Shown here: positions 36,163 through 52,487 of the stretch, one piece after another
How positions within the stretch are numbered: the first letter of the stretch is position 1
Layout of the letters: each line of letters opens with the position of its first letter
Source of the DNA: Patescibacteria group bacterium
GTDB taxonomy: Bacteria > Patescibacteriota > JAHJAL01
Length of the DNA: 64,000 nt
Reading direction: 5' to 3'
NCBI GenBank assembly: GCA_041648895.1
Contig: JBAZOB010000002.1
Location: forward strand, 826-64,825
Notes under the pieces: model-generated
Databases searched by the model: none
Told to the model about the DNA's origin: nothing
What the model saw: the letters and a program-made list of their open reading frames with translations, nothing else
Position numbers and translations under genes: made by a program

Positions 36163-38691
36163 TCATTTAATATTTAATAAACCTTTCTCTAATCTAGACA
36201 TATCAGTAAAAGTAATTTTACTTTGAGGTGGATTAGTTTTAAACATTCGTTCCCCATAAGCATTTTTCTCTAAATCACCGGCAACATAATTAATGTCATA
36301 TTTTACTCCCCACAATCCCAACGCCCGGCTTAAAACAGCTTTCGTGTCCTCAATAGTTTGTTTCCCGATATCCCTATCTTCGGTTAATAACTCAGTCACT
36401 AAATCATCTTCATATCCGACCCCTGACTCCCGACGTCGTATAACCTTAGGATGTTGATCATATAGACGCCAAAATCTTTGTGACATGTATACATTAAATA
36501 ATGCCGTTGCTTCTTGTTCTAATTTGTCTTTAAACTCTGGTGAGCCAACTTTTAGATCCTTGATCTTCTCTGGTGTTTGCTTTTGCGACATTATATCTTC
36601 CACATACCAACTATCATATTGTCGAGCAAGCGGTATGCCATTTTCAGCCGCATATATATCTCGACGATTATTTGTTGTGACTTTGATGGTATTGTCAAAT
36701 TTTACGGCTTCGTTCCCACGATATGCATTCTCTACAGCATATGAAAGCCGAATATCCTCAGCTATTTCATCTCTGGCATTGTAACCATTGGCCTTGGCAT
36801 AACCTTCAGCGGTCAATGTAGTATTCGGACCACCTGCTTTAGGTAAATAGGCAAAGTATTTATCCCTTTTAGCAATAATATCAACGTACTGCCATAATCT
36901 CCTTGCTGCAACTAGATATGGATACTTCTTAATTTCATCAGAAATATAATCCATTTTTGAAATCAACATTTTGGTATCTCGATTTTTCTCGTAATTATTG
37001 ATAACTTTTTCAAAAAATCTTTCATCAATATCCTGTAAATCTGCATCTGCACTAGCTACTATTAAGTCATGTCTTTGTTTTTTTCGCGCCAGACTTCTCA
37101 TTAATGTAACATCAGTAATCATCTTTCTGAGAAGACCCATATTTTGTTTACTACCAAACTCCTTACTAATGACATTGATTTTTACACCTGGATACTGCTT
37201 TTGAAAATTATCTAACTCCTTCACAGATTTCTCAATATTTTTGTCTGTATCGCCATAAGCATTTACAAAAACATTAATCTCGAAATTTTCGGCGGCAATG
37301 TATCCGCCACCATATTTTTGATTAATGTATTTTTCCAAGGTTTTTTTATATGTTTCCGGTTTTTCTTTAGCGTAAATGGGCAGGCATACAACCACTTTAC
37401 AATTTTCATCCATTGCAGGCAGACTCTCGGTATATTTTTTAATCTCATCAATATATGCTTTGTCAGTTGTCTCTAAATCTTTAAAATATCTCTTCAGTTG
37501 TATTCTTTCCTCTTTTATCCTTTCATTGGCATCGGTGAATTCTTTTACTTTTTCGATCTTTGCACTCGGGCTAGCGTCCGGCCCATAAGGCCTTCCTCGA
37601 TCTGGCCCATATCCTGGTCCATAACCAGGTCCATATCCCGGTCCTGTTCTAATTGGAGTCCACGCGTCACCCTTTTTTGTTGGCCACATTGAATCCACGG
37701 CTCTACCAGTTAAATAGGCAAGAGCAGAACCTAGACCAACTTTTTCAAAGAAACCAAGCCCGCTACCCAATACATGTGTGTTACCATATATAGCATTTTG
37801 TAAGACAGTAAGGTTACCAGCGGCCGGACCAAATGCCCTAGCCACTTTATCGGCTGTCTGTATGGCGTGGCTAGCCTCGCCAGGATTATAAACAAATTCC
37901 GCACCAGTTGCTTTCCAAATAACTTTATGATGATGATCTAAAAATCCGAGAGGATGTTTTTCAGTAATTGGGGTTAGCCCCTTGTCATAATCTTGAATAC
38001 CCAAAGATACTCCGCCCAGTAACCCAACTCCCAAAGTAGCCGCAGTTGAACCAATGGTCCGGCCTAATTTCCAGCGCCGCTCACTAGTCATATTTCTATT
38101 CTGAGTCTCGATTACCTCGGTTTCCTTACTGTGTAAGCGATTAAGTGCTTGTTGAAATTGGTTATAATTACGACTTCTCGCGGCCGTCTTTAACTCATCA
38201 GCTATAGTTGTTAATTCAGTTTGTACCCGCCATTCCAACTGAGCCCTATTTCGCCCCCAATGTAATTGTTCTGCTGCCTCCATTAAACCATCGAAACCTT
38301 CTCTCAAACCAGCCATTGATAGTGATGGGGTTAAAATTGTTCCTATCCCCCCGCCAAAAGTTAAACCAGCAAAAACACCAAAACCACCAATTGTTTTAAT
38401 GCCAATTTTTAACCACTTTCGCCAACGAGTAGTATCATAACGACCAGCCTCATCAAGAGTTTGGGCTGTTCTTCGTTCGCCTTCGCGATTCAACCACGCC
38501 TTGGCACGACTAAATAAACCAGAACCATATCTATCTATGGATCTTTGATGATCTCGTTGAGCCAAATTATTTATCGCATCGAGAGCTCTTTGCTCTAATG
38601 TATCTGGTGGACGGTCCGGTCCATAGGCTGGTCCGTAACTTGGTCTGTGCTCTGGTCCATAACTAGGACCATAACTTGGTCTTGACATCAT
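36163..38691 (-). CDS. Large membrane protein (842 aa) with N-terminal and internal Gly/Pro/Tyr tandem repeats (SYGP, GPGYGP), glycine-zipper helices, and a C-terminal GT2-like glycosyltransferase domain
   Basis: 'PSYGPSYGPEHRPSYGPAYGP' and 'GPGYGPGYGPGYGPDRGRPYGPD' repeats. C-terminal 'VVVCLPIYAKEKPE', 'INVFVNAYGDTD' and 'IVASADADLQD' align motif-by-motif with the GT2 N-domain of the 32674..34503 product. Confidence 0.55.
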   Translation of the reverse strand: MMSRPSYGPSYGPEHRPSYGPAYGPDRPPDTLEQRALDAINNLAQRDHQRSIDRYGSGLFSRAKAWLNREGERRTAQTLDEAGRYDTTRWRKWLKIGIKTIGGFGVFAGLTFGGGIGTILTPSLSMAGLREGFDGLMEAAEQLHWGRNRAQLEWRVQTELTTIADELKTAARSRNYNQFQQALNRLHSKETEVIETQNRNMTSERRWKLGRTIGSTAATLGVGLLGGVSLGIQDYDKGLTPITEKHPLGFLDHHHKVIWKATGAEFVYNPGEASHAIQTADKVARAFGPAAGNLTVLQNAIYGNTHVLGSGLGFFEKVGLGSALAYLTGRAVDSMWPTKKGDAWTPIRTGPGYGPGYGPGYGPDRGRPYGPDASPSAKIEKVKEFTDANERIKEERIQLKRYFKDLETTDKAYIDEIKKYTESLPAMDENCKVVVCLPIYAKEKPETYKKTLEKYINQKYGGGYIAAENFEINVFVNAYGDTDKNIEKSVKELDNFQKQYPGVKINVISKEFGSKQNMGLLRKMITDVTLMRSLARKKQRHDLIVASADADLQDIDERFFEKVINNYEKNRDTKMLISKMDYISDEIKKYPYLVAARRLWQYVDIIAKRDKYFAYLPKAGGPNTTLTAEGYAKANGYNARDEIAEDIRLSYAVENAYRGNEAVKFDNTIKVTTNNRRDIYAAENGIPLARQYDSWYVEDIMSQKQTPEKIKDLKVGSPEFKDKLEQEATALFNVYMSQRFWRLYDQHPKVIRRRESGVGYEDDLVTELLTEDRDIGKQTIEDTKAVLSRALGLWGVKYDINYVAGDLEKNAYGERMFKTNPPQSKITFTDMSRLEKGLLNIK

Positions 38692-39237: not shown

Positions 39238-39516
39238 ATGGCCGAAAAACCTAATTCTAAGTCAGAATCTGTCTTTCAGCCACTTCAGTTAGCTCTCAAC
39301 CTTGGCTACATGATCGCTTTGCCCCTGGTGATATTGGCCTTGGTCGGTCGTTACCTGGATAAAATATACCAGACCAGCCCCATATTCCTTTTGATTGGTC
39401 TCTTTATTGCCTTTGGTATTTCCTGCTACTATGTGTATAGGAAAGTTATAAAGATCTACTCCAATTTAGAAATTACCTCTTCAAAAGATAAGAATAGTGA
39501 TAAAAAAGATAAATAA
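39238..39516 (+). CDS. Small two-TM protein, AtpZ/AtpI-like ATP-synthase-operon leader protein
   Basis: 92 aa with two hydrophobic helices ('LGYMIALPLVILALVGRYLDK', 'IFLLIGLFIAFGISCYYVYRK'), positioned directly upstream of atpB. Confidence 0.4.
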   Translation: MAEKPNSKSESVFQPLQLALNLGYMIALPLVILALVGRYLDKIYQTSPIFLLIGLFIAFGISCYYVYRKVIKIYSNLEITSSKDKNSDKKDK

Positions 39517-39641
39517 TATCTCCAGATATCCCATTGCCCATGTGTGACATATTCATGTAAAATAAAATAAATAATTATGTTTCCGTATAAACAATTGGTT
39601 TATATCGGAACATAATCGTTTATTTATTCACCTGATTATCA

Positions 39642-40397
39642 ATGGAACCAGTCATCTCACTATCGGCTGAGCCAATTGTGCACCTGGGAAGTCTACCAAT
39701 TACCAATACCTTGATAGTGTCCCTGGTTATTTCCGTTTCGCTGATTATTTTTAGTGTCATTTTTAATTTTTTTATTAAACCGGTCCCATCAGGTATCCAG
39801 AATATAATTGAATCGATATTTGAAGGCGCGCTGGATTTTATTGAATCTGTCTTGCAAGACCGCCAGTTGGCTTATCAATTTTTCCCGGTGGTTTTTACCA
39901 TCTTCCTTTTTGTTATTCTTTCCAACTGGATTGAAATTGTGCCTGGCCTGGGCAGCATTGGCATTTGGGGGGAACATCATGGAGAAACCGTCCTAATTCC
40001 CTTTATCCGTTCATCTTCCGCTGACATGAATGTGACTCTGGCCTTGGCGATCTCGGCCATGCTAGCCGTGCAAATATTTGGCACTGTTAAACTAGGTTTT
40101 AGTGAATACGCGGGCAAATTTCTGGTTAATCCATTCAAACAGCCATATATTATCGGTACTTTTGTGGGTTTACTGGAGATCGTCTCCGAATTTGCCAAGA
40201 TTATTTCTTTTTCCTTTCGTCTTTTTGGCAACATCTTTGCCGGCGAAGTCTTGCTTTTGGTTGTCGGCTTCCTTGTACCCTATATAATCCCTTTACCTTT
40301 TCTTTTTCTGGAAATATTTGTCGGCTTCATTCAGGCGCTGGTTTTTTCCATGCTGACGCTAGTGTTTATTAAAAGCGCGACGACAGCGCATCATTAG
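39642..40397 (+). CDS. atpB: ATP synthase F0 subunit a
   Basis: Essential Arg region 'FSFRLFGNIFAGEVLLLVV', 5-6 TM helices, 251 aa. Confidence 0.85.
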   Translation: MEPVISLSAEPIVHLGSLPITNTLIVSLVISVSLIIFSVIFNFFIKPVPSGIQNIIESIFEGALDFIESVLQDRQLAYQFFPVVFTIFLFVILSNWIEIVPGLGSIGIWGEHHGETVLIPFIRSSSADMNVTLALAISAMLAVQIFGTVKLGFSEYAGKFLVNPFKQPYIIGTFVGLLEIVSEFAKIISFSFRLFGNIFAGEVLLLVVGFLVPYIIPLPFLFLEIFVGFIQALVFSMLTLVFIKSATTAHH

Positions 40398-40407
40398 TCA
40401 TTAGTAA

Positions 40408-40662
<255 letters not shown>

Positions 40663-40743
40663 ATGATAATCTGGTTCTTAGGGTTTGAAAGTTCATAAAA
40701 TTTTTATGAACTTCACAAACTTTATCAACTTTCACTTCAAGCC

Positions 40744-41247
40744 ATGGATTTAATCACTAAATTAGGTATAGACTGGCGTCTTTTGACCGCCCAAATATTA
40801 AATTTTACTGTCTTATTGGTCATTCTAAATTATTTTCTATATAAACCTATTCTAAAAACTTTGCGCGAACGCGAACAAAAAGTTAAAAAAAGTATCGAAG
40901 ATAGCCATAAAATTGAAGAGGAGTTGCTCAAAGTAGCTAAAGAACGAGAAGAAAAACTTAAAACCGCCAAAGTCGAAGCCTCTCATATTATCAAAGAATC
41001 TCAAACTACGGGCGCCGAAGCCAGGGAAAAAATTATCCAGGTGGCCAAAGCCGAAGCCGAACAAATCATCGCCAAAGCCGCCCTTGAATCCAATCAAGCG
41101 GCTGCCGAAATTAAAAATGAAGTCCTGGCTGAACTGGTTGATATTGTCATTTCTGTCACGGAAAAGGTTCTAGATCAAAAAATTACTAACGAAGAAGATA
41201 AAAAACTGATTAGTAAGTCAATCAAATCTATTATCAAAAATAAGTGA
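40744..41247 (+). CDS. atpF: ATP synthase F0 subunit b
   Basis: Single N-terminal TM helix followed by a long charged coiled coil (167 aa), between atpE and atpH. Confidence 0.75.
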   Translation: MDLITKLGIDWRLLTAQILNFTVLLVILNYFLYKPILKTLREREQKVKKSIEDSHKIEEELLKVAKEREEKLKTAKVEASHIIKESQTTGAEAREKIIQVAKAEAEQIIAKAALESNQAAAEIKNEVLAELVDIVISVTEKVLDQKITNEEDKKLISKSIKSIIKNK

Positions 41248-41699
41248 AAATCTCTCCCCAACAATACGCTGCGGCTCTAACTGAATCAATTACCGGGTTG
41301 ACTCCCAGAAAGAGTCAGTCAGTCATGGCTAAATTTGGGCAAATTATTAAGAAACATGGCGACCAATCATTGTCAAAACAAATTATGGCCGAATTTACTG
41401 AAATTATTGATCAACAAAATAAGTCAGGTGAAATCAAAATAATTACCCAAGTGCCTCTCGGTGGCCTAGATGAATTGTCTCAGAAATTGTCTCTCCAAAC
41501 TGGCCGAGAATATCGCCTAATTAATTCTTTGCAAGACGACTTAATTGGCGGCGCTATCATGGTTATTGATAACTTAAAAATTGACTTATCCATTAAAAGC
41601 CGATTGCATAAAGCCAAACAACTTAAGCCAGCTAGGACCCATATTTTGCCCGAATATATTGAGGAAATAATTAAAATCATTCAAAAGAATATTGCCTGA
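41244..41699 (+). CDS. atpH: ATP synthase F1 subunit delta (OSCP), shortened version
   Basis: C-terminal 'LIGGAIMVIDNLKIDLSIKSRL' matches the delta C-terminal motif. 151 aa, overlapping atpF by 4 nt. Confidence 0.65.
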   Translation: MKISPQQYAAALTESITGLTPRKSQSVMAKFGQIIKKHGDQSLSKQIMAEFTEIIDQQNKSGEIKIITQVPLGGLDELSQKLSLQTGREYRLINSLQDDLIGGAIMVIDNLKIDLSIKSRLHKAKQLKPARTHILPEYIEEIIKIIQKNIA

Positions 41700-41769
41700 T
41701 AACTATTTATTAGTCACCAGCGTTAATAATTAGTCATTAGTCATTAGTCATTAGTAATTATTATTCATC

Positions 41770-43293
41770 ATGACCACAAAATTCGACAAAAACACGATTA
41801 TTTCCCAGTTAAAAAAAGAATTATCCAAAATTGATAATGAACCAGCCATCGAAAAAGTTGGCCGGATTATTCAAATTGGTGACGGTATTGCTTTAATTGA
41901 TGGGCTAAACGACGTGATGTCGCAGGAAATTGTCCAATTTTCCAACGGCGAATTCGGTGTCGCGCTCAATCTTAACGAAGACACTGTTGGCGCCATTATT
42001 ATGGGTGAATATGAAAACATCAAAGAAGGTGATGAAGTTAAAAGCACCGGCCGAATTTTATCAGTACCGGTGGATAATAGTCTGATTGGCAGGGTAGTCA
42101 ATCCTTTAGGACAAGTACTGGATGGCAAAAGCGAAATTAAAACTGATACTTATTATCCAATTGAAAAAATCGCCCCCGGTGTTATTACCCGGCAAGAAGT
42201 TAAAGAGCCGGTGCAAACCGGTATCGTGGCTATTGACGGCATTATTCCGATTGGTCGTGGCCAACGCGAGTTAATCATTGGCGATCGCCAAACCGGTAAA
42301 ACTGCTCTGGCCATTGATACCATCATCAATCAAAAAGGCCAAGATATGATCTGTATCTATGTGGCTATCGGCCAGAAAAAATCAAAAATCGCTCAAATTA
42401 TTGATAAATTAAATCAACATGGCGCCATGGATTACACCATTGTTGTTTTGGGTGGCGCTTCCGACTCGGCCGCTTTGAACTACATCGCTCCCTATACCGG
42501 CTGCGCGATTGGTGAATATTTCATGGATCGAGGCAAAGATGTACTCGTAGTCTATGATGACCTATCTAAACATGCCGTTGCTTACCGTCAAATCTCTCTA
42601 CTGCTACGTCGTCCGCCCGGTCGTGAAGCCTATCCGGGTGACGTTTTTTATCTGCACTCTCGTTTGTTAGAAAGAGCTGCCAAATTGGATAAAAATTTTG
42701 GCGGTGGTTCACTCACGGCCTTACCAATCATTGAGACCCAAGCCGGCGATATCTCGGCCTATATCCCCACCAACGTAATCTCCATTACCGACGGTCAAAT
42801 ATTCCTGGAATCAGATCTTTTTTATAAAGGGGTACGGCCAGCTTTAAATATTGGCCTTTCCGTCTCCCGAGTTGGTTCCGCCGCTCAGATTAAAGCCATG
42901 AAAAAAGTAGCCGGCAAACTCAAATTATCTCTAGCCCAATTCCGTGAGTTGGAAGCTTTTGCCCAATTTGGTTCTGATCTGGATGAGGATACTAAAAAAG
43001 CCATTGAACTTGGGCGTCGCATAACCGAAATTCTAAAACAACCCCAATATTCCCCCCTGCCGGTTGGTAAACAAATTGCTATCCTCTACGCCGCCAACAA
43101 CGGTTATCTCGACGATATTGCGGTGTCCAATATTAAACGATTTCAAAATGAGTTCAATGACTACCTCGAAAGTGAGCCGTCACAAGTAGTGAAAGCTATC
43201 ATGGAGAAAAAGGAATTAGATGAAAAGATAGAAAATAATCTCAAAGAAGCGATAGAAGCTTTTAAATCCAGTATTGACTATATTGAAAGTTAA
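41770..43293 (+). CDS. atpA: ATP synthase F1 subunit alpha
   Basis: Walker A '[15 protein letters not shown]', 507 aa, canonical alpha sequence throughout. Confidence 0.95.
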
Positions 43294-43384
43294 TTTCCTT
43301 CATTGAAAATTAGAAATTAGAAATTGAAAATTCATCAACTAGGGCAACATATCGGTAACGTATTCATAAACATATAATTGTCCC

Positions 43385-44305
43385 ATGTCCAACACGCGCG
43401 AAATAAAACGTCGAATAAAATCGATCCAAAGTACGCAAAAAATCACCAAAGCCATGGAAATGGTAGCGGCGGCTAAAATGCGTAAAGCCGTTGATCAAGT
43501 TTTAATCTCTCGGCACTATTCCAATATCGCCTGGGAAATTATCCAAAAAATCGCCACTAGTGAGGTGCAGCACAAGCACCCATTATTGCGAGAAATCAAA
43601 AACGTTAAAAAAGTAGCTATCCTAACCATTGCCTCTAATCGAGGTTTATGTGGAGGCTTCAATAGTAATCTTTTCAAAACTGCTCTTGCCGCCTGTCAAA
43701 AACTTTCCGCCAATCAAATCGAATTCGAATTTATCACTTTTGGTAAACAAATCGCCGCCGAAATCAGGAAAAAGAATTTAAATATTGTCGCCGATTTTGC
43801 CAAACCGGATTTATTGCAAAACATTACCACCGTTTCACCCATCGCGCACATTTTATTGGATGGTTTTATCTCCAAAAAATATCAGCAAGTTTTGTTGGTC
43901 TACACTGACTTCCAATCATCTCTCAAACAAACTCCAGTCGTTAAACAATTATTACCTTTAAAAACTACTGCCGATCAAGATCTGGGCGTGGTTGGACCAC
44001 AATCTACTAAAAAATCATATTCCCAGACCCCCGCCGATACTCATGAAATTATTGAATATAAATTTGAACCATCACCCGCCCACGTTCTCGATGAAATCTT
44101 GCCGCGTATCCTCGAAATACAAGTTTATCAAGCCGTGTTAGAATCAGATGCTTCCGAACACTCCGCCCGCATGATGGCCATGAAAAACGCTCACACTGCC
44201 GCCACTGACGTGATTGATTCATTAACTCTAGCCTACAATCAAGCTCGCCAGGCCGCCATCACGCAAGAAATTGCCGAAATCGTGGCTGGCGCGAACGCGA
44301 TTTAA
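43385..44305 (+). CDS. atpG: ATP synthase F1 subunit gamma
   Basis: 'IKRRIKSIQSTQKITKAMEMVAAAKMRKA' N-terminal helix and C-terminal 'ITQEIAEIVAGANA'. Length is 306 aa. Confidence 0.85.
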   Translation: MSNTREIKRRIKSIQSTQKITKAMEMVAAAKMRKAVDQVLISRHYSNIAWEIIQKIATSEVQHKHPLLREIKNVKKVAILTIASNRGLCGGFNSNLFKTALAACQKLSANQIEFEFITFGKQIAAEIRKKNLNIVADFAKPDLLQNITTVSPIAHILLDGFISKKYQQVLLVYTDFQSSLKQTPVVKQLLPLKTTADQDLGVVGPQSTKKSYSQTPADTHEIIEYKFEPSPAHVLDEILPRILEIQVYQAVLESDASEHSARMMAMKNAHTAATDVIDSLTLAYNQARQAAITQEIAEIVAGANAI

Positions 44306-44327
44306 TTCTTCATTTTTCATTAATTAA

Positions 44328-45716
<1,389 letters not shown>

Positions 45717-45765: not shown

Positions 45766-46188
45766 ATGACCAAAATTAATTTCCAAATTATTACTCCCGA
45801 ACGCACCCTCTTTTCCGAGGAGGTAGACGCCGTGACCTTAAAAACCACTGAAGGCGAAATTACTGTTTTACCCGGGCATATCCCAATTATTACTACCTTA
45901 GCACCAGGAGAATTACGCTTTATAAAAGATAATGAAGAAGTACCCATGGTAGTACTGGGCGGTTTTGCTGAAATTACCAAGACATCAGTTATTGTCCTGG
46001 CTGACGCGGCCGAGAAAGTGGAAGAAATTATCGAAGAACGTGCCTTGGCAGCCAAAAAACAAGCCGAAGAACTCAAGCAAAAGAAAATTGGCGACCAGAC
46101 TGAATTTACCGCTCTTTCCGCTCAGATCGAAAGGGAGTTAGCCAGACTTAAGGTAGCGGAGAAATATAAGAAAAGGAGAAAAATATGA
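45766..46188 (+). CDS. atpC: ATP synthase F1 subunit epsilon
   Basis: 'INFQIITPERTLFSEEVDAVTLKTTEGEITVLPGHIPIITTLAPGELRF' beta-sandwich plus a C-terminal helical hairpin. Length is 140 aa. Confidence 0.85.
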   Translation: MTKINFQIITPERTLFSEEVDAVTLKTTEGEITVLPGHIPIITTLAPGELRFIKDNEEVPMVVLGGFAEITKTSVIVLADAAEKVEEIIEERALAAKKQAEELKQKKIGDQTEFTALSAQIERELARLKVAEKYKKRRKI

Positions 46189-46616
46189 AAACCTATCAAT
46201 TTGAAGACTTTCACGAAGTCGAGGCGGCTGTCGTCTTCTGCGTTGACCCTCGATTTTGGCGCCAAACCATTCAATTCGTTGATGAGGAGCTGGGCATAAA
46301 AAAATTTGATCCCTACACCTATCCTGGTGGACCCTTATGCTTGGCTCGTCCCGAAAGCATGCAACTTTATCTTGATAATATCAAAGCTGCTTCTTTAGAA
46401 CTTCACCACGCTAAAAAAATCATCTTGATCAGTCACGATAAATGCGGCGGCTACCGTCTGATTGAAGGCGTGGAAGGTGAAGAAGCCACCTCTCGTCAAA
46501 AGACTCATCTCGACAGCATCAAAGCTAAATTTATGGAACAATTTCCCGATATCGCAGTCGAAGCCTATTTGCTTAAAATTGTCTCGGATAACGAGATTGC
46601 TTTCGAAAAAATGTAG
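46185..46616 (+). CDS. Hypothetical Cys/His-motif protein (143 aa) with CxDPR and SHDKCGGY motifs, translationally coupled to atpC. Paralogous to the C-terminal half of 47324..48274.
   Basis: ATGA overlap with the atpC stop. 'VVFCVDPRF' and 'ILISHDKCGGYRL' are about 56 aa apart, a spacing and residue pattern reminiscent of the beta-carbonic-anhydrase zinc ligands (CxDxR / HxxCGG). The family is otherwise unassigned. Confidence 0.5.
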   Translation: MKTYQFEDFHEVEAAVVFCVDPRFWRQTIQFVDEELGIKKFDPYTYPGGPLCLARPESMQLYLDNIKAASLELHHAKKIILISHDKCGGYRLIEGVEGEEATSRQKTHLDSIKAKFMEQFPDIAVEAYLLKIVSDNEIAFEKM

Positions 46617-46759
46617 ATTATCGGTCAAAACTATTGGCTTGTCAGCCTTTCATCCCCGCCAGCCAGCGGGGATATTATATTTGACAATAACGGATATTCG
46701 ATATTATTGTATTAGATAAACATGGTTAACATTATGAAAACACCTATAAACTGAATATT

Positions 46760-47266
46760 ATGAAATTATCTCGCCACTTTGATTCTTCACCCGCCAATAT
46801 CCATCATTGGAAAGAACTGATCAAAATCAATCACCAGGAAAAAAAGCATCCAGAAAATGAAACGGAGCATGAGCCATTTGATCTTGATTATCATGAATAT
46901 CGATTCGTCAAACCGGAAAGCCGACGTTCAAACTGTCCTGATTTAAAAAAATCCGCCAAAGAAGAAATGCTATCAATTACCAAACAATATTTTCAAAAGA
47001 TTGTTTGCAAAAATATTATTAATGGTTTCAAACGAAATCGTCCCTGTGCCCCAAATCATCTAAAATTATTTCTGCGTTCGCCCGAAGATAAAAAATATTT
47101 CAAAAAAATATTGATGGAAGAATTTATATCAGCCATCAAAAAAGGCCATGATATCTCCCATTTCCACACCGTCTTTATTGCTCTCTCCAGTGACGATTCG
47201 GTGTTTAAACTACTGAAGAAAATCATCGACACCAAGAACAAATTCGAGGACAAACAGAATCCATAA
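46760..47266 (+). CDS. Hypothetical protein (168 aa, basic, Cys/His-containing)
   Basis: Clean ORF between the two paralogous CxDP/CGGY genes. No recognisable motif. Confidence 0.4.
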   Translation: MKLSRHFDSSPANIHHWKELIKINHQEKKHPENETEHEPFDLDYHEYRFVKPESRRSNCPDLKKSAKEEMLSITKQYFQKIVCKNIINGFKRNRPCAPNHLKLFLRSPEDKKYFKKILMEEFISAIKKGHDISHFHTVFIALSSDDSVFKLLKKIIDTKNKFEDKQNP

Positions 47267-47323
47267 TCATTATCATACTAATCAGATTTAGCGTTATTTT
47301 TTTATTTATTAACATATTAGACT

Positions 47324-48274
47324 ATGTCATTATCATTGCTTGAACAAAAAGAATTAGCTCCAGAAAATGGTTTGGACAATTTATCTAAAGAAAATTTTTA
47401 TTTTGAAAAAAATACTAAACCCGTTGACATTGCCCTAATCAGTTTTCTAGACCACAATCACCAAATGAATCCCGAGGAAGTATTGCGCAACGTCAGAATT
47501 AACTGCAAAAACATCAAAAATCTATCCCCATCAGATAACCGTAAAATTGATGGCTACTTTTTACCTAGTGACCCAACATTATATCAATCAACAAATCATG
47601 AATTCGTCGATTTTATAACTCAAAGCATCGCCGATGCATCGATTGACGCCCATCAAGCCGAAAATTTTATTTTCTATGATCAAGAAGGGTGCAAAGTACG
47701 AGAATACTTTTATCAAGAATTAGAAAAGAAAATTGATCGAAAAAATAAATTTAGAAAAAGCACGGCCATATATCATTTCGCCAGAGTAGGTAATAATTTA
47801 TCTGTTGACGCGAAGGTTTCTCAACCCGATGGTATTATTTTTGTCTGCATTGACCCCAACTTAATTGAACAATCATTGACCAAAATTGTTAAAAGTTATG
47901 GTTTTAAAAAATATCAAGTAGTTGGCTTGCCTGGTAGCGCTTATAGTATGGTCAGGCCCGAAACTAAGGAAATTTTAACAGATTATATAAAAAATTATCC
48001 TTTGGCCAGAGCCGTTTTTTGTTCACATGGGCCCTCTCCCGACCAGAAACAAGATGAGCCATGCTATAACTGTGGCGGTTATCAGCTCTTTGAACATATA
48101 ACTGGTATTGAAGCCTATCAACAAGCCAAGCGAGATTTGCAACAAGTCAAAAGCGAATTAAAGAAAAACAATATAACTAAAGTGGACACCGTCATCAACA
48201 TGGCGCAATATATGGGCCAAGGTAGCGCGGCAGATTCAAAACTCTATAAGGCAACGTTCGAAATTGTGGCTTAA
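47324..48274 (+). CDS. Hypothetical protein (316 aa). Its C-terminal half is a paralog of the 46185..46616 product (CxDPN and SH...CYNCGGYQL motifs).
   Basis: 'IIFVCIDPN' aligns with 'VVFCVDPR', 'GFKKY' with 'GIKKF', 'VRPET' with 'ARPES', and 'AVFCSHGP...CYNCGGYQLFE' with 'IILISHDKCGGYRLIE'. Confidence 0.5.
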   Translation: MSLSLLEQKELAPENGLDNLSKENFYFEKNTKPVDIALISFLDHNHQMNPEEVLRNVRINCKNIKNLSPSDNRKIDGYFLPSDPTLYQSTNHEFVDFITQSIADASIDAHQAENFIFYDQEGCKVREYFYQELEKKIDRKNKFRKSTAIYHFARVGNNLSVDAKVSQPDGIIFVCIDPNLIEQSLTKIVKSYGFKKYQVVGLPGSAYSMVRPETKEILTDYIKNYPLARAVFCSHGPSPDQKQDEPCYNCGGYQLFEHITGIEAYQQAKRDLQQVKSELKKNNITKVDTVINMAQYMGQGSAADSKLYKATFEIVA

Positions 48275-48287
48275 GCCCAAAATCTTG

Positions 48288-48740
48288 TCAATCAGTGAAA
48301 TCCCAGTGTAAAACTTTGACAATTTTCCGTCGGCCGCCATAGTCCCAGCCATGACGCACCACTTTTTTCAATTTCCAATTATTACTAATCGCTTTCTTGT
48401 CGCCGACATAGAATCCAATATGTGGATGCTTGTATCCAATTTGTTTACGTTCCCAAACCAAGACATCGCCTGCCTGGATATCCACCAAATCAACCTCATG
48501 CCAGCCATATTTAAGCATAGCCTCAATGGCCGCCTTCACGGTGGCTTTTTGTTCATCAATCAAATTATGCAATTTCAACACCCCCGTCACAAAGACCGCG
48601 CAGCTTAATTCGCCCCTATTTAAAATCTCTTTCTCTTGCTGATTATCATTCACCCATAACTCGCGGAACATCTCTGACCCGACCGCGTTGTTGATCATGG
48701 ATAAATAATTTTTTTTCTTATTTATATTTAAATTGTTCAT
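48288..48740 (-). CDS. NlpC/P60-superfamily-like papain-fold protein (putative cysteine peptidase/amidase)
   Basis: Candidate Cys nucleophile in 'GELSCAVFVTGV' and His in 'HPHIGFYVGDKKAISNN', similar to the NlpC/P60 'HVGIYxGNGxxIHA' region. No signal peptide seen. Confidence 0.4.
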   Translation of the reverse strand: MNNLNINKKKNYLSMINNAVGSEMFRELWVNDNQQEKEILNRGELSCAVFVTGVLKLHNLIDEQKATVKAAIEAMLKYGWHEVDLVDIQAGDVLVWERKQIGYKHPHIGFYVGDKKAISNNWKLKKVVRHGWDYGGRRKIVKVLHWDFTD

Positions 48741-48869: not shown

Positions 48870-49796
48870 ATGATGATTAAAATAAAAAATTTAAGCAAAA
48901 ACTACGGTATTACCAAAGCCTTGGACGGTATTAGTTTTGAAGTCAATCAAGGTGAAATAGTTGGTTTACTTGGTCCAAATGGTGCCGGGAAAACCACCGC
49001 CATGCGTATTATCACCGGATTCTTGCCACCTACTAGTGGTCAAGTAGAAATTGATAATATCAATGTTGTTGAGCATCCCGAGAAAGTGCAAAGCCAAATC
49101 GGCTATTTACCCGAAACCGCCGCTCTCTATCATGATTTGTCCGTGCGTGAACATCTGGAATACGCCGCCGCCATTCATGGTCTGGTGGGTGACGAGCAAA
49201 AGCAAGCCATCAAAAATATCGCCCAGGCCTGCGGCATTGCTGATAAACTATATTTTGACGTCTCCGAATTATCCAAAGGTTACAAACAACGGGTCGCTTT
49301 AGCCCAGGCTCTCATCCATAATCCTAAAATTCTTATTCTCGATGAACCATCCACTGGACTCGATCCTAACCAAATAATTGAAATACGCGATCTGATCAAA
49401 AAACTTAGCGAAGAAAAAACCATCATCCTCTCCACTCACATCATGCAGGAAGTGGAAGCCCTTTGCAGCCGAGTGGTATTAATAAACAAAGGGAAAATCG
49501 TTGCCGACGGCTCGGTCGCCGAATTAAAACATGGCCAAAACGCCGTTCATCAAATCAACGTGACTATCAAAGGCAATCAAGAAGAAATCTGGCATCATCT
49601 CAAAAATATCGCCGGCATCACCAGCGCGCAACAAATCAAGCACCCCGACAAAGGTGTCGGTGTCTACACCATTAACGCCGATCAAGATATCCGCTCCGAC
49701 ATCAATAAAACCATGATCAAGGCCGGCTATGACATCCTCGAAATCGCCGCCAAAGAAAATACCATGGAAGATGTTTTTCATGAATTAACCAAATAG
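48870..49796 (+). CDS. ABC transporter ATP-binding protein (GldA-like ABC-2 exporter ATPase)
   Basis: Walker A 'GLLGPNGAGKTT', signature 'LSKGYKQRVALAQAL', Walker B 'ILILDEPSTGLD'. Length is 308 aa. Confidence 0.85.
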   Translation: MMIKIKNLSKNYGITKALDGISFEVNQGEIVGLLGPNGAGKTTAMRIITGFLPPTSGQVEIDNINVVEHPEKVQSQIGYLPETAALYHDLSVREHLEYAAAIHGLVGDEQKQAIKNIAQACGIADKLYFDVSELSKGYKQRVALAQALIHNPKILILDEPSTGLDPNQIIEIRDLIKKLSEEKTIILSTHIMQEVEALCSRVVLINKGKIVADGSVAELKHGQNAVHQINVTIKGNQEEIWHHLKNIAGITSAQQIKHPDKGVGVYTINADQDIRSDINKTMIKAGYDILEIAAKENTMEDVFHELTK

Positions 49797-49804
49797 AAGA
49801 TTAT

Positions 49805-49885
49805 GTGAGCAGTGAACAGTGAACAGTGAACAGTAAAAAACTGAATTACTTGTTATTTACTCACTGCTCACTGCTCACTGTTCAC
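49805..49885. repeat. 81-bp palindrome built from tandem GTGAACAG octamers, in the intergenic region between co-oriented ABC genes
   Basis: The sequence gtgagcagtgaacagtgaacagtgaacagtaaa...tttactcactgctcactgctcactgttcac forms a ~30-bp stem. Confidence 0.7.
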
Positions 49886-49905
49886 TTCTAACTTATCATT
49901 ATCAT

Positions 49906-50628
49906 ATGCCATCCAAATTAACTCAACTAAAAGCCATTATCCAAAAAGAGCTGCGAGTTTATTTCAACTCACCCATTGCCTATATCTTTTTAGTCGCCTT
50001 TTTGGGTTTTACTTTCTGGTTGTTTTTCCGTAATTTCTTCTTGGTTGGTCAGGCCGATGTGCAATACATGTTCGATGTTTTACCTTGGATCTACTTATTG
50101 CTTATCCCCGCCATGACCATGCGCCTCTGGGCGGAAGAAAAACGCGGTGGCACAATTGAAAATCTCTTAACTTCTTCCGCTCCCTTGTCCATCTCCGTTT
50201 TGGCCAAATTTATTGCCAGTTTAATTTTCTTGCTAATTACCCTGGCAGCCACTTTACCCCTGCCGCTTATTGTTTCTTCTTTAGGCCCGCTGGATTGGGG
50301 GGCCACCTTGGCTGCTTATCTGGGAGCGATTTTACTCGGCAGTAGCTATATAGCTCTGGGATTATTATTGAGCTCGATTACCAATAACCAAATCGTCGCC
50401 TACATTATCTCCTCTCTGGCTTGTTTCGCTTTATTTATCATTGCCCAACCGCTCGTGACTATTTCTTTGCCGGCCTTCATTATTCCAGTCGTCGACTTTA
50501 TTAGTTTCGGCTCCCACTATGATTCCATTGTCCGCGGCGTTGTCGACACCCGAGATTTAATATATTACCTTTCTTTTATTGGGTTAATGTTATATTTAAA
50601 TGCTTATGTTTTATTCGCAAAAAAATAA
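49906..50628 (+). CDS. ABC-2 family transporter permease (GldF-like)
   Basis: 6 TM helices, 240 aa, immediately downstream of the ABC ATPase. Confidence 0.7.
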   Translation: MPSKLTQLKAIIQKELRVYFNSPIAYIFLVAFLGFTFWLFFRNFFLVGQADVQYMFDVLPWIYLLLIPAMTMRLWAEEKRGGTIENLLTSSAPLSISVLAKFIASLIFLLITLAATLPLPLIVSSLGPLDWGATLAAYLGAILLGSSYIALGLLLSSITNNQIVAYIISSLACFALFIIAQPLVTISLPAFIIPVVDFISFGSHYDSIVRGVVDTRDLIYYLSFIGLMLYLNAYVLFAKK

Positions 50629-50661
50629 AAATTAATGAGTTGTGCTAATTAGTCGTTCCCC

Positions 50662-50766
50662 TGTCATCCCCGACCGGAAGCGGAGCGTTCCGGTTATCGG
50701 GGATCTCATCAATAAGGCGTTTAACAAAACTTAATGATGAGATCCCCGCTCAAGGCGGGGATGACA
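50662..50766. repeat. MITE-like palindromic element (TGTCATCC...GGATGACA family), >95% identical to the copy at 16994-17098
   Basis: Same ~105-bp sequence with 3 substitutions. It lies between the permease and gldG-like genes. Confidence 0.75.
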
Positions 50767-50828
50767 TGAGAGAGATGGTTAATTCACGCCACTCATTAAT
50801 TCTTAATTTCTAATTCCTAATTAAATTA

Positions 50829-52487
50829 ATGTTTCACTCGTCCAAAATATTTTTATTCACCGCTTTATTTGTAATTCTAAACATACTATCCAGTATGCTT
50901 TTCACCCGGTTCGATTTTACCGCCGGGCAAATATATACTTTGTCAAATTCCACTCGGCAAATAGTTGATAATTTACCCGAAGGGATAGAAATCAAGGCCT
51001 TTGTGTCCAATAATTTGCCGGCCCAATATGTTACCTCCAAAAATCAACTATTGGATAAATTGGATGAATATCGCAATATTTCCGGTAAATTATCGGTCAA
51101 TATCTATGATCCGGTTAATGATACCGCGGCCGCCAGCCTGGCTGAAGCTCTGGGCATTCCTTCGCTTGATCTGCAAGCGGTGGAAAAAGATCAATATCAA
51201 GTCGTTAAAGCCTATTTTGGTTTAGCCGTTTTAAAACATAAATCTGATGCGTCGAACCCTAGTGATAACAGTAATTCCGGGCCCTTGGCCGACTATGAAA
51301 AGCAAGAAGTTCTGCCGGTTATCCAAAGCTTGAACTCTTTAGAATATGACTTAGGCTCAATGCTTCTGAAAGTTGGCTCAAATGAGCAAATGACCATCGG
51401 TTTTCTGACCGGTCACGGCGAACATGGTTTTGCATCAGCCAACTCCTATTTTACCGGCGCCAATGTCAATCCTCGTGATGACTACACCATCTGGCAGACT
51501 TTGAGTCGCAATTATCATGTTATTCAGATTGATCTGTCAGCCGCTCCCGCTGTGGAAAACAGTGATAACCAAGATCCATTAGCCAGCGTTGATACGTTGG
51601 TAATTGCCGGTCCGACTCAAGCTTTTAGTGAAGAAGATATCAATCAAATCCATAATTTTGTGCAAAACGGTGGTCAGGCCATTTTACTCATTGACAGTAT
51701 GAATGTCGATTTACAGTATTCATTGTCCGCCTCGACTTTACCGGAAAATTACCAGCAATTATTGGCCCCCTGGGGAGTGAGAGTCGATAATAAATTAGTC
51801 GCCGATGCCAACAATGACATGGCCAGTTTTAACCAAGGTTATGTTACCTATTCTTTGCCTTATCCATATTTTGCGAAAGTTACCGATTTGAGTGAAGATA
51901 ATGTCATTACTCGTGATTTGGAATCAATCACCTTGCCCTGGACTAGCCCACTCGATATTACTGACATTGAAGGGGTTAGTATCGAAAAAATAGCCTATTC
52001 TTCGCCTCATTACAATTTAGTTACCGAAAATACCGTCGCCGCGCCAGCTGACACTACAAATCTGGCTGACGAAACCGATACTAGTGTCGCCGCCAACCCC
52101 GCCACTCAAACCGAACCAATTGATCTAAATCCCCAACAAGATTTTAATATTTCCAGTCAAGCCAAAGATCCGGTCACTCTGGCCGTTATCGCCAAAAAAA
52201 ATAACGAAGGGCAAGTTTTAATTATGGGTGATTCTGATTTTTTAAGTCAAAATTTTCCCGGCAATGAAATATTTTTTCAAAATGCCGTTGATACTTTTAC
52301 TCTCGGTGACACCCTGATCCAAATCCGTTCCAAAAATATCACTGATCGCCCCCTCCGGCCTTTAACTGAAACAAAAAAAGACACCATTCGCTGGGGCCTG
52401 ATCATTGGCATACCGCTCTTATTTGTCCTCTATGGCATTTTCCGCCGCTGGCAACGTGTTAATTTAAAAAATGCCAGCCAGATTTAA
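50829..52487 (+). CDS. GldG-like auxiliary component of an ABC-2 exporter (N- and C-terminal TM anchors, large periplasmic/extracellular domain)
   Basis: N-terminal anchor 'IFLFTALFVILNILSSMLFTRFDFTAGQIYTLS' and a C-terminal TM 'WGLIIGIPLLFVLYGIF'. 552 aa, in an operon with the ABC ATPase and permease. Confidence 0.6.
   Translation: MFHSSKIFLFTALFVILNILSSMLFTRFDFTAGQIYTLSNSTRQIVDNLPEGIEIKAFVSNNLPAQYVTSKNQLLDKLDEYRNISGKLSVNIYDPVNDTAAASLAEALGIPSLDLQAVEKDQYQVVKAYFGLAVLKHKSDASNPSDNSNSGPLADYEKQEVLPVIQSLNSLEYDLGSMLLKVGSNEQMTIGFLTGHGEHGFASANSYFTGANVNPRDDYTIWQTLSRNYHVIQIDLSAAPAVENSDNQDPLASVDTLVIAGPTQAFSEEDINQIHNFVQNGGQAILLIDSMNVDLQYSLSASTLPENYQQLLAPWGVRVDNKLVADANNDMASFNQGYVTYSLPYPYFAKVTDLSEDNVITRDLESITLPWTSPLDITDIEGVSIEKIAYSSPHYNLVTENTVAAPADTTNLADETDTSVAANPATQTEPIDLNPQQDFNISSQAKDPVTLAVIAKKNNEGQVLIMGDSDFLSQNFPGNEIFFQNAVDTFTLGDTLIQIRSKNITDRPLRPLTETKKDTIRWGLIIGIPLLFVLYGIFRRWQRVNLKNASQI

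Follow-up and report, generated by a model that had tools for sequence, protein, structure and literature searches.

The beta-class carbonic anhydrases (beta-CAs) closest to the protein described here are the small, cytoplasmic Cab-type enzymes. These include Cab of Methanobacterium thermoautotrophicum (1g5c), Rv1284 (1ylk), an enzyme of S. mutans (3las), and TvaCA1 of Trichomonas (6y04). They have an alpha/beta fold and possess the CxDxR and HxxCG(G/A) motifs, which hold the zinc ligands and an Asp-Arg dyad. In Cab, the spacing from the first Cys to the His is about 55 amino acids (aa). An N-terminal arm helps beta-CAs to dimerize, and the canonical active site is built at the subunit interface. 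A 64,000-nucleotide stretch of DNA from a Patescibacteria group bacterium (contig JBAZOB010000002.1, positions 826 to 64,825; the whole stretch is called the window here) possesses a gene for a 143-aa protein of this kind directly behind atpC, the gene for the epsilon subunit of the F1Fo ATP synthase. This protein has the fold and both motifs in common with the Cab-type enzymes, and it too is small and apparently cytoplasmic. However, it is 11–18% identical to them, is about 25 residues shorter, and has no N-terminal helical arm. On balance, the 143-aa open reading frame (ORF) is taken to encode a cytoplasmic minimal beta-class-type CA of the Pro_CA_2 family that is the last F1Fo cistron and would serve F1Fo proton traffic. 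It is very probable that the protein is a zinc protein of the beta-CA superfamily, and it is likely to be an active CA. A specific functional tie to F1Fo is an even call.

The gene for the 143-aa protein is located on the plus strand at 46185–46616. The protein scores 32.7 bits (cutoff, 30) against Pfam PF20393 (Pro_CA_2, “Putative carbonic anhydrase”) and belongs to this family, the entry for which is itself a prediction. PF20393 is also matched by 14 of 17 relatives, and all of the close homologues carry a precomputed PF20393 domain. The NCBI entry that is identical to the protein is named “MAG: carbonic anhydrase [Patescibacteria group bacterium]”, MAG being a metagenome-assembled genome. 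Since a Pfam family and an NCBI name exist already, the identity of the protein is not new. The two motifs are CVDPR (residues 19–23) and HDKCGG (residues 84–89). The predicted zinc ligands are C19 (46239–46241), H84 (46434–46436), and C87 (46443–46445), and the dyad would consist of D21 (46245–46247) and R23 (46251–46253). Cys19, His84, Cys87, and Asp21-Arg23 make up a complete predicted metal and catalytic signature of a beta-CA. The original prediction, made from the sequence of the window, had put the Cys and His about 56 aa apart. The actual spacing is 65 residues (C19 to H84), and it is 60–73 across the family. Neither a signal peptide nor a transmembrane segment was found in the sequence.

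The ligands are conserved well beyond the close relatives. Word-indexed homologue searches, a profile search included, plateaued at 15–18 close relatives, and an exhaustive HMMER search reached further. Clustered at 50% identity, the family was found to contain 1103 clusters with E ≤ 1e-3, of which 153 reach E ≤ 1e-10. Single-domain proteins of 135–160 aa make up most of it. CxDxX followed by 60–73 residues and HxxC was present in 158 of the 166 proteins checked, and Arg ends the first motif in 156 of these 158. In an alignment of 80 sequences, C19, D21, G48, H84, and C87 are invariant and R23, D42, H74, G88, and Y90 are more than 90% conserved. D42, H74, and Y90 are the family's own and set it apart from the Cab-type enzymes. 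The Cys, Asp, His, and Cys columns are also invariant in an alignment of 17 sequences that includes a 316-aa paralog encoded downstream.

A phmmer search of the PDB with the single 143-aa sequence gave nothing relevant. When the profile of the 80 members was compared to all PDB sequences, only chains of the beta-CA superfamily were matched (CA, CS2 hydrolase, and COS hydrolase; best E, 1e-4). The best alignments printed place the family's CiDfR and HedCG opposite CMDAR and HTDCG of the fungal CafC and opposite the equivalent motifs of TvaCA1. Among the matches, the CS2 hydrolase 3ten and the COS hydrolase 3vqj share the ligand motifs, as would be expected if the protein were a beta-CA-fold hydrolase with another small substrate, such as carbonyl sulfide or carbon disulfide. 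However, these two matches (E 0.015 and 0.16) are weaker than those to bona fide CAs (1e-4). There are also no recurring sulfur-related neighbors near members of the family, whereas bicarbonate and proton partners do recur. A hydrolase of this kind is thus very improbable, and carbonic anhydrase remains the preferred activity.

The predicted structure points the same way. The AlphaFold2 model of the 143-aa protein, built with 16 sequences, has a pLDDT of 94 and a pTM of 0.88. It consists of strands at residues 14–19, 41–46, 78–84, 124–134, and 137–142 and helices at residues 22–35, 49–53, 59–73, 88–94, and 98–119. In a Foldseek search of the PDB, ranks 1–33 are all beta-CAs (E 8e-6 to 2e-3, TM score 0.43–0.58). 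Cab (1g5c) is the best match at E 8e-6, followed by 6y04, 3las, 1ylk, CafA, CafC, pea CA, and Can of E. coli, with a best probability of 1.0. Nothing significant was found in BFVD, which holds viral proteins. The modeled protein has a beta-CA fold. It was suggested originally that the sequence outside of the motifs does not obviously resemble beta-CAs, and this does not hold for the fold. The same prediction had weighed a minimal beta-CA-like site against an unrelated metal-binding fold. PF20393, the Foldseek matches, the comparison of the family profile to the PDB, and the invariant ligands all favor the former. With a beta-CA fold and conserved Cys, Asp, and His, the beta-CA-like reading is supported.

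The 143-aa gene also appears to be part of the atp operon. As had been noted from the sequence, it overlaps the stop of atpC (45766–46188, plus strand, 140 aa; Pfam ATP-synt_DE_N, E 8.9e-28, and ATP-synt_DE, E 4.9e-5). Its ATG and the TGA of atpC share ATGA at 46185–46188. A Shine-Dalgarno sequence, AAGGAG (46173–46178, plus strand), is located within atpC, 6 nt 5' of the ATG. A GC-rich, terminator-like hairpin of eight pairs, six of them G-C, is present on the plus strand at 46652–46673 and is followed by a weak T-tract. This hairpin, a pattern match from a consensus scan, begins 36 nt 3' of the stop of the 143-aa gene and is likely the end of an atp-CA transcript. The overlap, the Shine-Dalgarno sequence, and the hairpin fit the 143-aa gene as the last atp cistron. 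The strand shared with atpC, the overlap, a position that is conserved in other genomes, and the terminator-like hairpin would all make it a member of the operon.

It had been proposed to check whether homologues linked to atpC recur, and they were found in both related and distant genomes. A narrow-alignment search of genomes gave four close loci. In all loci of close homologues that reach upstream (59–80% identity; L001–L013 and L162), the gene is directly after atpC. In L162, the order is atpD, atpC, Pro_CA_2 (143 aa), a 331-aa paralog, an NlpC/P60 gene on the opposite strand, and an ABC transporter. The order in the window is the same but for a 168-aa ORF, at the place of which L162 has no called gene. 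More distant members are found in the same place. The gene is behind atpC in L016 (P0021, 39% identity), where atpC itself is 48% identical to that of the window, in L017 (P0023, 33%), and in L021 (P0026, 37%). L023 (P0031, about 30%) has atpC and then two tandem Pro_CA_2 copies. In L022 (P0036, about 25%), from a Candidatus Parcubacteria MAG, atpA-G-D-C is followed by a Na+/H+ exchanger and then Pro_CA_2. The atp order is unusual in L021 (113–2044), a short contig with atpG, atpC, and Pro_CA_2 and no atpD in between. Two or three Pro_CA_2 copies or domains come after atpC in L011, L013, L016, and L023.

Metagenome contigs were scanned with a DNA pattern that encodes only C[IM]DFR...HxDCG and is blind to atp genes. 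All of the metagenome counts given here are among the matches listed (at least 120 metagenome loci). The family hidden Markov model (HMM) was matched in 119 of 120 listed metagenome loci and in 18 of 18 viral loci. Clustering of the listed loci at 90% identity gave 107 clusters, and 94 of these have at least one upstream gene. The gene immediately upstream on the same strand is atpC in 24 of the 94, and in 30 it is no more than three genes away. Of the 107 clusters, 33 have an atp gene of some kind nearby. A random gene would be expected behind atpC in about 0.1–0.2% of cases, and 24 of 94 would thus be an enrichment of more than 100-fold. The atp-linked members span several sequence clusters with mutual identity below 30–35%. 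The spacer between atpC and the CA gene has a median of 28 nt and is 30 nt or less in 22 of 43 cases, the overlap in the window being the tightest. In one contig (L087:1085–1516, minus strand), Pro_CA_2 is an internal gene of the atp operon, with atpA on one side and atpG on the other. Patescibacteria-type loci keep the gene behind atpC even when they are deeply diverged.

Several observations weigh against the protein as a beta-CA dedicated to F1Fo. It is below the gathering cutoff of PF00484 (15.1 vs 25.7 bits, E 0.028), the best E among its relatives being 8.5e-6, so it is a remote beta-CA relative and not a classical member. Its structural likeness to beta-CAs is moderate (TM score about 0.5, root-mean-square deviation 6–8 Å), and with just 13 residues before strand 1, the N-terminal arm of beta-CAs is absent. 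One homologue (P0027, 31% identity) is preceded by a leuA-like gene instead of atpC. About two thirds of the distant members sampled have no atp linkage, which means that coupling to atp genes is not obligatory for the family. In addition, the pattern scan favors AT-rich codons, its contigs come without taxonomy, and the lineages are not fully independent.

One rival explanation is a genuine housekeeping CA for which the atp linkage is an expression convenience and which provides bicarbonate for a few remaining carboxylations or for general pH buffering. Such a CA would profit from the strong, constitutive expression of the operon without being specifically tied to F1Fo in function. Many family members are indeed found in other places: some follow SulP, HlyIII, or leuA-like genes, and some are on viral contigs. 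Some atp-linked loci have spacers as long as 280 nt or genes, such as GGDEF, in between. However, it is this one operon, and this one place behind atpC, that comes back in lineages less than 30–35% identical, and the L087 gene is inside the operon. In two unrelated loci (L022:4412–5992 and L076:1942–3375), the gene that separates atpC from the CA gene encodes a Na+/H+ exchanger (PF00999), which points to ion and proton physiology. A housekeeping CA of this kind is rather unlikely, and a CA that serves F1Fo proton traffic is still preferred.

The neighbors of family members that are not linked to atp genes can indicate what the family does. Among the matches listed, a SulP protein (Sulfate_transp and STAS domains) is encoded immediately upstream on the same strand in five loci (L042, L048, L119, L146, and L147). 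An HlyIII-family membrane protein has this position in five others (L060, L081, L091, L093, and L143). The family as a whole is associated with bicarbonate and proton transporters. Adjacency or fusion of SulP and CA is described, in passages of PMC6458275 that cite Felce & Saier (2004), as a documented signature of active beta-CAs paired with bicarbonate transporters. In the model outlined there, the CA consumes cytoplasmic protons as bicarbonate is converted to CO2, and this contributes to pH homeostasis (PMC6458275).

Alternatively, the protein could be a zinc protein of beta-CA fold that is non-catalytic or a sensor and that serves the ATP synthase as an accessory, in assembly, or in regulation. 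For example, CO2/bicarbonate or redox state could be sensed at the Cys/His site and modulate epsilon or F1. The translational coupling to epsilon would be apt if the two are made in stoichiometric amounts. The minimal size without an N-terminal arm, the persistence of paralogs with degenerate sites alongside, and the conservation of the non-canonical D42, H74, and Y90 would all fit this role. However, the full catalytic set is kept family-wide, and a structural zinc site would not need the Asp-Arg dyad. The association with SulP that is typical of active CAs is found in the family, and most atp-linked loci do not have the translational coupling. A sensor or assembly factor is improbable, and an active CA is preferred.

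Members of the family were also found on viral contigs. Pro_CA_2 homologues are present on 18 IMG/VR contigs (L024–L041) of 27–205 kb, one of them labeled GVMAG, and it appears that large dsDNA viruses carry this CA-like family. Thirteen viral and seven metagenome loci form one cluster of 20 members at 90% identity. In L027, the neighbors of the gene (L027:7693–8205) match PHROGs for a clamp loader, a thymidine kinase, a nucleotide-sugar epimerase, and a glycosyltransferase, and no atp genes are near it. Another locus (L150:404–2858, minus strand) has four consecutive Pro_CA_2 copies.

The mechanism that can be proposed starts from a CA in the cytoplasm. The 143-aa protein would bind zinc through C19, H84, and C87 and catalyze CO2 + H2O <-> HCO3- + H+. 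In this way, proton traffic through an H+-type F1Fo could be linked to the CO2/bicarbonate buffer. Hydrolysis of ATP for proton-motive force is commonly assumed in fermentative, respiration-poor Patescibacteria. If F1Fo hydrolyzes ATP to build up proton-motive force, H+ for the cytoplasmic face would come from the CA, with HCO3- left behind. If protons instead enter the cell, the CA would dispose of them in the form of CO2. Bicarbonate made by the CA may additionally activate F1 hydrolysis. Passages of PMC9583940, citing Lodeyro et al. (2001), state that carbonate/bicarbonate activates hydrolysis by F-ATPase and inhibits synthesis. A more far-reaching possibility is that the F-type ATPase of Patescibacteria has Pro_CA_2 as its dedicated accessory, the CA forming a proton/bicarbonate module with F1Fo and, in some lineages, a Na+/H+ exchanger. 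In these ultra-small cells with little respiration, CO2/HCO3- would then serve as proton source or sink and bicarbonate as an activator of hydrolysis, so that proton-motive force and cytoplasmic pH are kept. A heteromeric complex with a degenerate two-domain paralog could possibly be formed as well. This wider role is regarded as doubtful.

The paralog in the window is the 316-aa protein encoded at 47324–48274 on the plus strand. The original prediction had read the two proteins as paralogs from motifs that align in order, and these motifs are present in both ORFs. By BLASTP, residues 13–116 of the 143-aa protein match residues 169–279 of the 316-aa protein with 26% identity over 116 columns (E 2e-13). 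This match, together with the invariant Cys, Asp, His, and Cys columns, bears out the paralogy. The C-terminal domain (about residues 165–316) is Pro_CA_2-like (family HMM, E 1.2e-12). No match to PF20393 was found for this protein in the Pfam scan, and it is linked to the family through the family HMM and BLASTP only. Its motifs are CIDPN (residues 175–179), SH (234–235), and CYNCGG (247–252), and the ligand equivalents are C175 (47846–47848), D177, H235 (48026–48028), and C250 (48071–48073). A 12-residue insertion between the His and the Cys contains an additional cysteine, C247 (48062–48064). The Asn in place of Arg that had been noted for this paralog is correct. The dyad Arg is replaced by Asn (N179 of CIDPN) both here and in its homologues, and the Asp-Arg dyad is thus absent. 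Three full-length homologues were detected (P0017, P0018, and P0019). In L162, the syntenic ortholog is the 331-aa gene right behind the CA gene.

The N-terminal half of the 316-aa protein may be a second copy of the domain. The AlphaFold2 model has a pLDDT of 68, and the strand-helix pattern of its C-terminal half recurs in its N-terminal half. Foldseek gave nothing significant for this model, the medium confidence of which does not allow conclusions on structure; the best match was HGPRT (E 4e-3), and the first beta-CAs were the 21st and 25th matches. The N-terminal half (about residues 29–155) scores 6.2 bits against the family HMM, which is weak. By hhalign, it is collinear with the family over 88 columns, also weakly (E 1.3e-3, probability 18%). 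In this alignment, VDIALISFLDHN stands opposite AAVVFCVDPR, and ASIDAHQAENFIFYDQ stands opposite ASLELHHAKKIILISHD. The zinc ligands are lost in this half. Positional equivalents of the gene in related loci encode 241–305 aa. Those of L011 and L013 clearly have two domains, with IGNPE and GDGQGE in the N-domain and CIDPR and HEACGG in the C-domain. In L002, L005, and L012, the order of the degenerate and the intact domain is reversed. The N-terminal half of the 316-aa protein is probably a degenerate second Pro_CA_2 copy without ligands, and the whole is a probable pseudo-dimeric paralog with an altered site. Most likely it acts not as a standard CA but as a pseudo-dimeric partner or as a relative that is regulatory or inactive.

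The two paralogs are separated by a 168-aa ORF (46760–47266, plus strand). Neither Pfam nor NCBIfam gave a match for it, no homologue was found in the related loci L001–L016 by tblastn, and in the syntenic L162 no gene is called at its position, where there is a gap of 73 nt. A decayed paralog was considered for this ORF and ruled out, as it scores 2 bits against the family HMM, has no homologue in L001–L016, and is missing from the gap in L162. It is a lineage-specific insertion or no real gene and is probably outside of the CA system. A promoter-like sequence (TTGACA, 18-nt spacer, TATTGT; 46681–46710, plus strand) is present 5' of the downstream genes; it is a pattern match only (10 of 12 in a consensus scan). 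Three minus-strand ORFs (46122–46274, 46395–46628, and 47056–47253) are short and wholly inside plus-strand genes and were considered spurious.

The atp operon of the window is complete. A small AtpI/Z-like ORF is followed on the plus strand by atpB, atpE, atpF, atpH, atpA, atpG, and atpD (39238–45716) and by atpC, and tblastn and Pfam gave the same gene order in related loci. Na+-binding c subunits carry E-S or E-T. The c subunit of the window has E-A, and a Na+-coupled ATPase was rejected as an inference. In two related loci (L005:2656–3021 and L162:3253–3615), the atp operon is interrupted by a 23S_rRNA_IVP (PF05635) gene, which separates atpG from either atpA or atpD. Between its atpA and atpG, L162 also has a 197-aa gene that carries no annotation. 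Upstream of the operon, the window has an 842-aa ORF (36163–38691, minus strand) with SYGP/GYGP repeats at the N-terminus and in the middle of the protein. Downstream, the cluster is bounded by a convergent NlpC/P60-like gene (48288–48740, minus strand) with a weak match to Pfam NLPC_P60. This gene is kept downstream in L001, L002, L005, L006, L010–L014, and L162. It is followed in the window by a set of ABC transporter genes (ABC_tran, ABC-2 permease, and ABC_transp_aux; 48870–52487, plus strand). Related genomes, L162 included, keep this order of NlpC/P60 and then ABC transporter downstream of the CA cluster.

The use of the F-type ATPase and the upkeep of pH and membrane potential are a standing question in the Patescibacteria (candidate phyla radiation, CPR), most of which have no respiratory chain. 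A CA-like gene that is kept behind atpC at about 25–30% identity suggests that CO2/bicarbonate chemistry may belong to the energy-coupling apparatus. With about 135–150 residues, Pro_CA_2 would in addition be the smallest scaffold of the beta-CA type. If the 143-aa protein is merely a housekeeping CA, this is an ordinary annotation. Literature searches for PF20393, Pro_CA_2, CA with atpC, and CA with CPR or Patescibacteria gave no description of the family or of the linkage. They also gave no paper on a conserved atp-operon context, on Na+/H+-exchanger insertions, or on adjacent degenerate two-domain paralogs. The recurrent linkage to atpC is apparently unreported.

Other known systems resemble parts of this locus. 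The tandem beta-CA of Porphyridium purpureum (1ddz) is comparable to the 316-aa paralog and its equivalents in having two CA-like domains, one of which has no ligands in the paralog. In contrast to the tandem enzymes, the homology of the N-domain is weak here, and the site that is retained has Asn for Arg and the 12-residue insertion. The carboxysomal CsoSCA also has one zinc-less domain. Mammalian CA II supplies H+ to the V-ATPase. This is a functional analogy only for the 143-aa protein; CA II belongs to the alpha class. Beta-CAs associated with or fused to SulP, such as can2-sulP of Acidithiobacillus and Rv3273, resemble the other Pro_CA_2 members that are directly downstream of SulP and STAS. 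However, the partner in the window is the F1Fo ATPase and not an anion transporter, and the CA subfamily is different. In the DAB complex, a beta-CA-like subunit is coupled to one that translocates cations. The DAB2 complex is described in PMC13144422 as carrying out CO2 hydration coupled to membrane potential. The 143-aa protein shares with the DAB complex the concept only, that of CO2/HCO3-/H+ interconversion beside a proton-translocating machine.

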